This document shows positions 3,471 through 5,884 of a DNA stretch of 64,000 nucleotides, piece by piece (position 1 is the first letter of the stretch; every line of letters begins with the position of its first letter). The stretch spans positions 79,934-143,933 of the forward strand of contig CAZRCZ010000008.1 of NCBI GenBank assembly GCA_964598765.1. Direction: 5' to 3'. The notes under the pieces are model-generated. The model saw nothing but the letters and a program-made list of their open reading frames with translations. It was not told the origin of the DNA and did not search any database. The position numbers and the translations under genes were made by a program. Source of the DNA: an uncultured Candidatus Sumerlaeota bacterium. Its GTDB lineage: Bacteria > Sumerlaeota > Sumerlaeia > MVZB01 > JAJFLK01.

Positions 3471-5884
3471 GCGCGGCGAACCTCAACGCCCAGCTTTATC
3501 CGATCCGGTGGGATTCTGACTCGCTCTATCGAGCCAGCGTCTATATTCGCTCCGACATCGGCAACGGCAAGGGACCCGTCGAAGGGACCGATCCCGTGGA
3601 CGGGATCGAGTTGATTTTTGATACGCCAACCAACGAATTGATCCAGTCGCATTTCACGACGTCGGGATCGGCGGGCAATATGCTTCATGCCGCCTCTCCA
3701 AGGTTGCTTTCGACAACGAATAATGTCGCGCAACCCTACGTCGGATTCTTTGCTTCGCATAATTCCACGGCGAGTCTGGTTCCGGACGCCAATCGGTTCC
3801 GATTGCAGACGCGCTTCACCAATCGCAATGATTTGGGCGGGAACGGAACCGATCCCTTGGCGGTGACGGCTATTCGGATTGAAAAATTGGTGAGACCGCA
3901 GTTGGTTCCGACGCCTGTCTCGACGCCGAAACCAATCCCGAAGTTGCCGCTCAGCGAGGATGCGGATCAGGATGGTCTGCCGGATTTGCTTGAGGTCATG
4001 ATCGGAACCGACCCCTATGATCGGGATACGGATGATGACGGACTTGGAGACGGCGAGGAAGTCCTGCGGGTCGGGCGATGCACTTTCCTCCAACGCGCAA
4101 CCGATCCGTTGAAATGGGACACGGATGGAGACGGATTGGCGGATGGACTTGAGTTGGGTGTCACGACGCTGGTTCCTGACGATGACGTGATGATTGGCGG
4201 GAATCCCGTTCACATCAAAGGCACGGATTTGGGAACCGGACCGCTGGTTGATCCGGTCCACGGCATCCGCGCCGATGGTGTGCGCCTTTTTGATGTTGAT
4301 CCCACAACCACCACCGATCCGACCAAACCCGACACGGATGGGGACGGCTATTGGGACGGACCGGATATATGGGTCACGTCGCCGGGCGGAATCCGCATGT
4401 TGCGCGTCGGGGAAGATAAAAACGGGGATGGGAAATATGATCCGTTGGGACCCGACGCCATCGTCGGCACTCCCGATGACGAGTTCGATCCGAACCATCC
4501 GGGGAGCCACCCGCAGGGAGACTTCTTGGCTCTCGATCAAAACAACAATGGCATCCCAGACAGCTTCGAGACGCTTGTTCAGCAACTGGCTGGAGAAATG
4601 AATTACTGGTTCGGGGATGATCCAACCTCCGTAACACAAGCCCTCATTTTCGATGCCATAAACAACTACGGGGATCCGCAGGTCACAGGCTCGGCCGCCA
4701 TTGCCGCGATCTGGGCGGCGGAAGCCTCGCCGGGCAACCCGAATGAGGAAGGTAGCCAAGGCGCGCTTCCGGCGGCGCTTGCCGTCTGCCAAGCGCTCCG
4801 AGATTATCTGGCTGAGGTCACTGGCAAACTTACAACAGGCACAAAAGTTTTTGGCCGTATGTTAACGGACCTGTTGGTGCAGGTCAATTTTGGTTTCGAT
4901 CAAACTGGCGGAATCGTCGAAGATGGCACGTTCCAAAACTTTCAGGATCCCCGTTTGTTTAATCCACCCACAGTTCACTACGAGGGCACGTTTGTGAACG
5001 GAGTTTTCAATGATAAGGTGAGTGCCAGAAAGGTGGTTAAAAGTCTCAACGAATCCTATGGATTCCCAGTGACACTAATCTATAATCCGACTGATAAGTT
5101 GCTAGGGGGCTTCTTCGACATCATTGAATCCGTTGAGCAATGGGGATATAACCGCTTGGCTTGGTTCAATCCCAGCCAGCTACTTTCCAAGGCTGATCGA
5201 GATCTATTTAATACTTGGGTCCAAATACTAGACGCTAATGGCAAGAATCAGGTTGTTCACTTTTGCCATAGCCAAGGCGGCCTCATCACGGCGCCTGCCT
5301 TGACGCGCATCATGGGTTGGCGTGTGTTCAGCTGGGGAAACCGTAGCCACCGACTGCATGTTGTCCTGTTCGGCTCGGGTTATTCCTACGTTCTCTATAA
5401 ACTTTGTGGTGGCGACGCGCATTTTGTTTACACGAGTGGCGACCTTGTTGAAGGTTTCGCCGGTGGTCATCATTTCTTTAACCCCGAGAACCTCCTCCCC
5501 GACCAACTGAAGCAACAGTCTAAAATCATTAACAGTCCGGCGATAACATTCGGCCACCCCTTCCTTCCCCACGAATTTCATCCTTGGGGTACGTCTGATT
5601 ATCTCGATAACACTTACGGATGGTGGACCCATTATAACGGCGGTCCAATCTGCCTAAGTAATAAGGGTAACATTCATGGGGAAAAGAAATGGTTGGCAGG
5701 AAATGGCGTCGTGTGGTGGAACGGCTACGTGACCGCGGAAAAATCATGGGTAACTGGAACCACACATCCTGCGCCTCCAGTTCTGGTACCTTATGGGTGG
5801 GTCAAAGCGAAACGTGAGAATGGTAGTGACCTTTACGAAAGTCGGTTGTTTGACCCCCGAGAGGAGGCGAACCTGATTCCATGA
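2831..5884 (+). CDS. Large polymorphic toxin B (1017 aa): conserved N-terminal region, TSP3-like calcium-binding Asp-rich repeats, C-terminal alpha/beta-hydrolase-like domain
   Basis: The ORF track gives 2537..5884. The first 98 codons of that ORF overlap the immunity gene in another frame, so the start is reassigned to ATG 2831 ([11 protein letters not shown]...). The same start is used by the truncated copy at 7297. Repeats [24 protein letters not shown] and [12 protein letters not shown] are present. CHSQGG lies at nt 5264-5281. The conserved tail motifs FGSGY and PHEFHP are present. Confidence 0.65.

Follow-up and report, generated by a model that had tools for sequence, protein, structure and literature searches.

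The gene for toxin B (positions 2831-5884) lies in a 64,000-nt stretch of DNA from an uncultured Candidatus Sumerlaeota bacterium (GenBank assembly GCA_964598765.1, contig CAZRCZ010000008.1, positions 79,934 to 143,933 of the forward strand), which was analysed at its full length and is called the window here. Compared with its relatives, the protein appears to begin inside its own N-terminal domain, which is followed by a module of Asp-rich, thrombospondin type 3 (TSP3)-like loops and by a hydrolase-like C-terminal domain. The interpretation that we favor, with a probability of about 0.55, is that toxin B and the shorter copy downstream of it, toxin C, are displaced "orphan" cassettes of an undescribed polymorphic toxin family of the Sec/type II secretion system (T2SS) class, analogous to the arrays known for MafB, CdiA, and Rhs.

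A Tandem Array of Toxin-Like and TPR Genes

Toxin B is unit 2 of a three-unit tandem array of toxin-like genes and tetratricopeptide-repeat (TPR) genes, which has a period of ~4.46 kb, runs along the + strand, and has a transposase gene at its end:

5-1399, +: toxin A, 3' part (464 aa), an open reading frame (ORF) comprising the end of the TSP3 module, the helical region, and the alpha/beta-hydrolase-like C-terminal domain; its 5' end falls before position 1 of the window
1396-2829, +: TPR-1, 477 aa, putative immunity partner of toxin A (TPR_12, E=3e-25)
2831-5884, +: toxin B, intact ORF, 1017 aa; ATG 1 nt after the TPR-1 stop codon
5934-7295, +: TPR-2, 453 aa, with a lipoprotein-type signal (...SVSMCGC, lipobox pattern), putative immunity partner of toxin B (TPR_12, E=3e-25)
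7297-7992, +: toxin C fragment, 231-aa ORF, identical to P0121; 97% identical to toxin B over 7297-7954, then diverging
8167-9300, -: rve-family transposase gene (rve_3, E=4e-12; HTH_32; rve), adjoining the truncation point of copy C
2451-3500, +: homogenised tract, comprising a TPR gene 3' end and the first ~660 nt of the toxin gene; 92-100% identical to 6917-7954 by sliding identity

Identity between the units is a mosaic. It reaches 92-100% at ~2450-3500, falls to ~75% at the end of the TSP3 module and to 53-67% in the C-terminal domain, and is lowest, at 31-50%, in the toxin tail and the TPR N-half. Toxin A, compared with 4441-4740, is 76% identical at the nucleotide level, and the value drops to 31-55% toward the 3' end; the C-terminal domains of A and B share 56.5% of their amino acids by tblastn, with dN of 0.31 and saturated dS. 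In the TPR genes dN/dS is 0.13-0.30, and dS, which is 0.08 in the C-terminal segment, is saturated elsewhere. Because dS is saturated, dN is low, and identity is mosaic, the units are, on these substitution patterns, old paralogues under purifying selection whose flanks have recently been homogenised. The tract at 2451-3500 is a candidate substrate for recombination.

The genes of the array adjoin closely. The TPR-1 start overlaps the stop codon of toxin A (ATGA), and toxins B and C each begin 1 nt after the preceding TPR stop codon (TGAnATG). The public annotation starts toxin B at ATG 2804 (P0268, 1026 aa), which makes its first 26 nt coincide with the end of TPR-1. A search around the transposase gene at 8167-9300 turned up no terminal inverted repeats, and scans of the window with PADLOC and Rfam and for tRNAs, promoters, and terminators gave nothing above chance; neither a tRNA nor an Rfam match came up. 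An 18-nt stretch at the breakpoint of copy C (7938-7955) recurs, with 94% identity, at 11131-11148 inside ORF 10052-11257. It is possible that this recurrence at the 7954 breakpoint is the trace of a rearrangement.

The N-Terminal Domain and the 5' End of the Gene

The regions of toxin B are, in order:

2831-3895, +: probable tandem beta-sandwich (jelly-roll, carbohydrate-binding module (CBM)/malectin-like) domain, aa 1-355, without ~50 N-terminal residues of the family consensus (family search, AlphaFold2 model, Foldseek)
3896-3949, +: Pro/Thr-rich linker, 18 aa (sequence; model pLDDT <50 at residues 360-369)
3959-4561, +: TSP3-type module of six ordered loops of calcium-binding type, aa 377-577 (motifs, shuffles, homologous modules)
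4598-4990, +: predicted helical stretch (aa 590-720) that joins the TSP3 module to the hydrolase-like domain (weak: AlphaFold2 helices at model residues 9-95, pLDDT <50)
4991-5884, +: alpha/beta-hydrolase-like C-terminal domain (motifs FVNGV, IYNPT, HFCHSQGG)

Searches of Pfam, NCBIfam, and the sequences of the PDB recognised no family for the N-terminal domain, and a HMMER scan of 1.84 billion representatives gathered a family of 252 representative clusters. The AlphaFold2 model of the domain (pLDDT 73, pTM 0.81) is all-beta, and Foldseek aligns it weakly with the tandem malectin-like ectodomains of ANX/FER, with Eph ligand-binding domains, and with CBMs. Modelled in this way, the domain is probably a tandem jelly-roll that serves in binding.

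Within the family the domain usually stands last. It ends no more than 15 residues from the protein C-terminus in 126 of 133 full-length matches, and only P0001 and P0146 run more than 30 residues past it. For the 131 homologues with an initial Met and 60 or more residues ahead of the domain, a crude test of hydrophobicity and charge calls a signal-peptide-like N-terminus in 96.

The start of toxin B does not coincide with the start of the domain. The family consensus reaches ~50 residues upstream of the toxin B Met (DFxxxxxGWxGGxxxGx9GLCMxVPxxGxNxxxWxSPx5LVDxxVYRxR), and six positions upstream of or at this Met are highly conserved in 112 homologues (F 82%, W 92%, G 91%, G 96%, C 98%, W 95%). 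Toxin B retains none of the six, and tblastn of all frames upstream of toxins B and C shows that the missing consensus residues are not encoded there. Because the conserved upstream positions are absent and are encoded in no frame, toxins B and C, measured against the family, start inside the jelly-roll domain and are truncated at the front. Most domains of the family contain exactly two Cys; toxin B keeps the partner, Cys132 (96% conserved), and has thus probably lost one half of a disulfide.

Relatives at other loci indicate what may be missing. P0001, the closest relative with the domain order of toxin B, has a different C-terminal domain (HExxH) and a complete N-terminal domain, in front of which stand at least 155 residues with a DNRLRE domain among them. 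Its Logan contig (L002) begins with the Nextera adapter AGATGTGTATAAGAGACAG at 1-24, so that the start called for P0001 is an artefact and the protein breaks off within DNRLRE. P0163, from another metagenome, is a cassette that begins later in the domain than toxin B does and lies directly after an LRR gene. P0146 has a signal peptide, a C-terminal extension, and a downstream lipoprotein gene; lacking a TSP3 module, it is only partly useful as a model of the full-length toxin.

The Six-Loop Module

All five Asp-rich motifs on which the original prediction rested its DxDxDGxxDxxE repeats are found within 3930-4460 in the translation of 2831-5884, and a sixth loop, DQNNNGIPD (nt 4535), lies just beyond. 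The six loops begin at nt 3959, 4025, 4118, 4331, 4415, and 4535. Loop 1 is DADQDGLPD (aa 377, nt 3959), the motif quoted for loop 2 covers aa 397-410 with DTDDDG at nt 4025, and loop 5 is DKNGDGKYD (nt 4415), previously quoted as KNGDGKYD. The repeat region contains four matches to the strict pattern DxDxDGxxDxx[ED] and six to the relaxed pattern [DN]x[DN]x[DN]Gxx[DN]; none of 5000 shuffles, which preserved the region's own Asp-rich composition, reached these counts (shuffle means 0.005 and 0.059, respectively). Asp makes up 19% of aa 367-543 and 4.5-6.8% of the flanking domains.

The assignment to a family is by similarity. Pfam TSP3_bac (PF18884) scores 15.3 bits on aa 361-620 (E=0.018) against a gathering threshold of 25 bits and is not matched when full-length toxin B is searched against Pfam, but PF18884 is carried by most of the 1277 sequence matches, and in NCBIfam aa 376-511 align with the TSP3 region of CglD (E=4.4e-9). 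A PDB sequence search with the TSP3 profile gave nothing significant, the only matches being to EF-hand and lanmodulin loops (E=0.16). Given the motif and shuffle counts, the PF18884-bearing matches, and the CglD alignment, the repeats are real, non-random, and, as far as similarity can place them, of the bacterial TSP3 calcium-loop type. They would be expected to bind calcium. Loops of this kind are widespread: a scan of genome contigs with full-length toxin B returned 80 loci in many bacterial and archaeal phyla, mainly through the TSP3 region, and a tblastn re-check of these loci gave no match to the N-terminal or the C-terminal domain.

It is the module as a whole that is distinctive. Residues 377-577 align end to end, loop for loop, with P0001, P0002, and the third gene of locus L001 at 43-50% identity, and the homologues part company just past the sixth loop. 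One and the same six-loop module thus precedes a lipase-like domain in toxins A and B and P0002, an HExxH-bearing domain in P0001, and yet another domain in the third gene of L001. As the original prediction proposed, the repeats stand between a conserved domain (aa 1-355) and a C-terminus that varies more, with the divergence setting in after the sixth loop.

The C-Terminal Domain

The helical region that follows the module is conserved between toxins A and B and absent from P0002. The domain beyond it is very rare: two homology searches, covering 5.8 billion proteins, found P0002 and P0267 as its only relatives. Toxins A and B and P0002 have in common the motifs FVNG, YNP(T/S), and FCHSQG, an Asp, and a His. 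The candidate catalytic residues of toxin B, Ser814 (nt 5270-5272), Asp871 (5441-5443), and His914 (5570-5572), are invariant in A, B, P0002, and P0267. In the AlphaFold2 model of the C-terminal part (pLDDT 41), a beta-alpha-beta pattern includes a strand, HSQGG, and a helix; the sequence C-H-S814-Q-G sits between predicted strand 217-222 and helix 225-241. The first small residue of the nucleophile elbow (small-x-Ser-x-small) is Cys, not Gly, in toxin B.

Profile comparison connects the domain with a known family. Aligned by hhalign, the domain profile matches P0267 with a probability of 97.4% (E=1e-11), and P0267 is itself a member of DUF687 (E=1.1e-9). Toxin A has a weak Pfam match to DUF900 (13.9 bits against a cut-off of 20.5, E=0.036) and toxin B has none; PDB sequence searches with the domain profile gave nothing significant. 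Both DUF687 and DUF900 have been assigned to the alpha/beta-hydrolase fold (PMC11878206). The C-terminal domain of toxin B is probably a rare Ser-Asp-His alpha/beta hydrolase-like domain related to DUF687.

A further motif, [FL][ND]P[RM][EQ]E...P, occurs at the extreme C-termini of toxin A (1367-1396), toxin B (5852-5881), and P0002. Its role may be structural, within the fold, or that of a tag for sorting or secretion.

The Putative TPR Partner Genes

Predicted lipoprotein genes lie downstream of toxin B, P0001, P0002, and P0146. The lipobox pattern is matched by TPR-2, whose N-terminus is hydrophobic (Kyte-Doolittle value 2.13), by the TPR protein of L001 (LILSC), and by the genes downstream of P0001 and P0146. 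At L001 the order is that of the array, with a lipase toxin, a TPR lipoprotein, and a next toxin that has another C-terminal domain, and stop and start overlap as TGATG. A gene follows the toxin each time, and in the array the N-half of this TPR gene changes from unit to unit together with the toxin tail. At their C-terminal ends (6917-7295 and 2451-2829; L001 3150-3546), ~90 aa of the TPR proteins are 61-64% identical between the window and L001, an unrelated metagenome locus, compared with 20-33% for the N-parts. A scan of metagenome contigs with the TPR alignment found one weak locus.

Export Signals and Delivery Components

The original prediction held that the protein has neither a Sec or Tat signal nor a recognised trafficking domain, and both statements agree with our results. 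Export signals were sought heuristically, from Kyte-Doolittle hydropathy over 10 residues (KD10) and the Arg-Arg motif, and transmembrane segments from 19-residue windows. The KD10 maximum in the first 40 aa of toxin B is 1.63, whether translation starts at ATG 2831 or at ATG 2804, with no Arg-Arg motif in either case, and no 19-residue window exceeds 1.02 over the whole protein, which by this measure has no transmembrane segment. Pfam and NCBIfam recognise no Rhs, PAAR, VgrG, LXG/WXG, TPS, or MACPF domain in toxin B, and no signature domain of Rhs, PAAR, VgrG, MACPF, or the type V, VI, or VII secretion systems (T5SS, T6SS, T7SS) in the 3' part of toxin A or in toxins B and C.

Several places in which a signal might have been hidden were considered and rejected. 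The alternative start at ATG 2804 (P0268) adds only MTAKGIESE, which is not a signal. A 98-codon in-frame extension upstream (TTG 2537) is basic and Pro-rich, has a KD10 maximum of 0.86, and overlaps the TPR frame; the latter is conserved with L001 at the protein level (dN/dS 0.14). Fusion of the TPR protein to the toxin through a +1 frameshift is likewise without support, as TGAnATG here and TGATG in L001 look like ordinary coupling.

The remaining proposal, that a new delivery mechanism may be at work, is not supported by these results. The N-terminal domain is usually C-terminal in proteins with signal-peptide-like starts, and toxin B begins ~50 residues inside it. Since the ORF begins inside the domain and P0001 keeps at least 155 residues in front of it, the absence of a signal is most simply explained by a missing 5' end. 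More generally, where a toxin-like gene in a tandem array seems to lack a signal peptide, a comparison with its domain family, to look for 5' truncation, should come before any proposal of a new secretion route.

A Pfam scan of ~45 other ORFs of the window revealed no component of T6SS, T7SS, T5SS, or the type I secretion system (T1SS; ABC/MFP/TolC) and no Rhs, PAAR, or MACPF protein. These ORFs are housekeeping and regulatory genes, together with two secretins and a pseudopilin-like gene:

29810-31672 and 31709-33475, +: two adjacent secretin genes (PF00263; Pfam)
55030-55725, +: pseudopilin-like gene with an N_methyl motif (Pfam)

The secretins or the pseudopilin-like gene, at least 24 kb from the array, could belong to an outer-membrane export machinery for Sec-dependent proteins.

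Possible Function of the Array

To judge from the relatives, the complete protein would consist of a signal peptide, a variable N-terminal part (such as DNRLRE), the tandem jelly-roll, the Pro/Thr linker, the TSP3 module of ~200 aa, and an exchangeable effector. The effector here would be an alpha/beta hydrolase with a Ser-Asp-His set, and its activity would probably be that of a lipase or esterase on envelope lipids. Each toxin gene would be followed by a lipoprotein gene, in this array a TPR gene, and the variable N-half of the TPR protein would neutralise the cognate effector in the periplasm. With the 5' end of the gene missing, toxins B (2831-5884) and C (7297-7992) would have no export signal and would not be secretable as they stand. 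The intact B cassette would be deployed only after homologous recombination had joined it to a full-length 5' gene, with the conserved tract (TPR 3' end and toxin 5' part) and the TSP3 module as the likely substrate, and the TPR genes would continue to supply immunity whether or not recombination occurs. The repeats, the truncation as measured against the family, the layout of the array, the mosaic of identity, and the differing C-terminal domains behind one conserved TSP3 module are observed; toxicity, immunity, calcium binding, Sec/T2SS export of the full-length form, and a full-length gene upstream we infer.

A number of observations weigh against this interpretation. Toxin A runs beyond the window on its 5' side, and the full-length gene is supposed, rather than seen, to be in the genome. 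Toxin B keeps an ATG placed for translational coupling and an intact 3-kb frame, and it may be translated as it stands; it also retains more than 600 aa of constant region, far above what is typical of CdiA and Rhs orphans. Among the relatives with a C-terminal extension, P0146 alone is complete and signal-bearing, and it may be something other than a toxin. The assignment of the hydrolase is one of remote homology only, with Pfam matches below threshold and an AlphaFold2 pLDDT of 41. As for the partners, the TPR proteins (~450 aa) are large for immunity proteins, the N-terminal signal of TPR-1 is ambiguous and does not match the lipobox pattern, and the conserved C-terminal ~90 aa point to a second, conserved role beyond the binding of a variable toxin.

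It is conceivable, although unlikely, that the array encodes not antibacterial toxins but ordinary secreted degradative enzymes, each composed of a CBM-like domain, a calcium linker, and an esterase or lipase, and duplicated in tandem. The TPR lipoprotein would then be a chaperone, a regulator, or an envelope partner, and B and C would be remnants of duplication. The jelly-roll domain does resemble CBM and malectin-like folds and mostly ends assorted secreted proteins with LTD, fn3, or MAM-like parts; TSP3_bac repeats occur commonly, and in many phyla, among proteins that are secreted or located at the surface; conservation of the TPR C-half is strong; and no toxin or immunity family was matched in any library searched. 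Enzymes of this kind are harder to reconcile with the unrelated C-terminal domains (lipase-like, HExxH, and other) that stand behind the same TSP3 module, each with its own lipoprotein gene, with the covariation of toxin tail and TPR N-half between units, or with an array of cassettes that includes truncated copies and a transposase. Exchanged C-terminal domains with their own partner genes, covariation of toxin and partner, and arrays of truncated cassettes are hallmarks of polymorphic toxin loci (PMC3482391). B and C might also be evolutionary fossils, dead remnants of duplication or displacement with no present function. Both lack the 5' end, C has been cut further at 7954 beside the transposase, promoter-like sites are no more frequent than chance, and the TPR-1 signal looks degenerate. 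The 3054-nt frame of B is nevertheless still open, the 92-100% identical tract speaks for recent recombination or conversion between units, and in the C-terminal domains of A and B dN is well below saturated dS, a value that mostly records history before truncation. The loss of all function seems rather improbable.

The reading of the original prediction, that toxin B is complete and functional and leaves the cell, with no N-terminal signal, along some unrecognised or non-classical route, also seems improbable, if marginally less so than that of fossils. Export might be directed by a T1SS-like C-terminal signal together with the calcium module, or by the conserved C-half of the co-translated TPR lipoprotein. 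Much about the gene is in keeping with a working product: the 1017-codon ORF is intact, the ATG lies 1 nt past the TPR stop in both B and C, an overlapping TGATG occupies the same junction in L001, the motif [FL][ND]P[RM][EQ]E at the extreme C-terminus is common to A, B, and P0002, the TPR C-half is conserved across loci, the truncated N-terminal domain still models confidently (AlphaFold2 pTM 0.81), and no known delivery domain was found. Against this, the ORF begins inside the domain and is minus six highly conserved positions, among them one Cys of the conserved pair; relatives have signal-peptide-like N-termini; the calcium module lies within the protein, with more than 400 aa between it and the C-terminus; and Pfam detects no T1SS set (ABC/MFP/TolC) and no T6SS, T7SS, or T5SS genes in the scanned ORFs of the window. 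In a more specific form, which we regard as a long shot, B-type proteins would be the working form, translated in coupling with the TPR lipoprotein gene and carried to the cell surface or a target cell by an undescribed route. The TPR C-half might serve as an adaptor at the envelope, or the six-loop module might work as a T1SS-like ratchet driven by calcium. A signal-less working form, if real, would constitute a new delivery class of polymorphic toxins in bacteria that apparently have neither T6SS nor contact-dependent inhibition (CDI).

Other Features of the Window

Immediately downstream of the array, the transposase gene, and ORF 10052-11257, the region 11330-14005 (+) encodes a DUF4388 protein and then a response regulator with a DUF445-like part. 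In the part of the window where GC content peaks (0.60-0.66), a 2566-aa ORF at 19686-27386 (+) contains seven FG-GAP_2 repeats and a Calx-beta domain; it probably encodes a surface protein of giant size. The GC skew takes strongly negative values at 24001-28000.

Relationship to Known Systems

The loops of toxin B share the DxDxDGxxDxxE calcium-binding type with those of Myxococcus CglD and MtsD (PF18884). The match to CglD is, however, confined to the repeat region (34.7 bits against a family cut-off of 400), and here six loops make up a fixed unit that immediately precedes an exchangeable C-terminal domain. With P0267, a member of DUF687 (PF05095), a chlamydial family of the alpha/beta-hydrolase fold, the C-terminal domain has FVNG, YNP, FCHSQG, an Asp, and a His in common. 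The chlamydial proteins are reported to lack the catalytic residues and to have C-terminal transmembrane helices, and some are predicted Inc proteins (PMC11878206, PMC3048545). In contrast, the domain of toxin B keeps the Ser-Asp-His set and has no transmembrane helices.

Tle lipase effectors of T6SS, of the GxSxG type, are reportedly paired with Tli immunity proteins, either signal-bearing or lipoproteins, that work in the periplasm, in work attributed to Russell et al. in Nature in 2013. The pairing of a lipase-type effector with a lipoprotein partner of periplasmic type, putative in the present case, is similar. Unlike the Tle systems, the scanned ORFs of the window include no T6SS genes, VgrG, PAAR, or Hcp, and Pfam matches no Tle family.

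In the polymorphic toxins of the Sec/T2SS class, a signal peptide is the sole trafficking feature and constant regions contain repeats (Zhang et al. 2012, PMC3482391). The same survey describes alpha/beta-hydrolase toxin domains (lipase-like, Tox-ABhydrolase) and standalone cassettes; TSP3 or thrombospondin modules are mentioned 0 times in it, and candidate immunity proteins made of TPR alone are not listed (PMC3482391). The combination of one constant module with unrelated C-terminal domains, and the truncated cassettes B, C, and P0163, place the present genes close to this class. They differ from it in the DUF687-related C-terminal domain and in that toxin B has no recognisable trafficking feature.

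The CdiA and Rhs systems provide a precedent for the arrangement of the array. Orphan cdiA-CT/cdiI and rhs-CT/rhsI modules are 5'-truncated tandem pairs in one orientation downstream of the full-length gene; they are still homologous to the conserved region, occur together with transposases, and can be brought into use through homologous recombination (PMC4927057). The present genes differ in that no TPS, FHA repeats, Rhs/YD repeats, PAAR, or CdiB were recognised here by Pfam and NCBIfam, and delivery would not be by T5SS or T6SS.

MafB of Neisseria is a Sec-dependent secreted toxin with a conserved N-terminal domain, a variable C-terminus, and an immunity gene directly downstream, and maf islands contain downstream arrays of mafB-CT/mafI cassettes, with or without a start codon, and insertion sequence elements at their borders (PMC4287609). 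Both there and here, an array of alternative toxin and immunity-like cassettes has a mobile element at its border. There is no sequence relationship between the two: DUF1020 is absent here, the constant region is instead a jelly-roll and a TSP3 module of which the cassettes retain more than 600 aa, the candidate immunity proteins are TPR lipoproteins of ~450 aa, and the signal-bearing full-length gene is not seen within the window. Should the orphan-cassette interpretation hold, the logic of polymorphic toxin cassettes, in which a full-length exported gene is accompanied by silent, recombinable modules, would extend to an undescribed lineage and architecture. Its new elements would be a jelly-roll family (252 clusters, with no Pfam model), a fixed six-loop module as the junction between constant and variable parts, a very rare relative of chlamydial DUF687 with a full catalytic set, and TPR lipoproteins that may serve in immunity.

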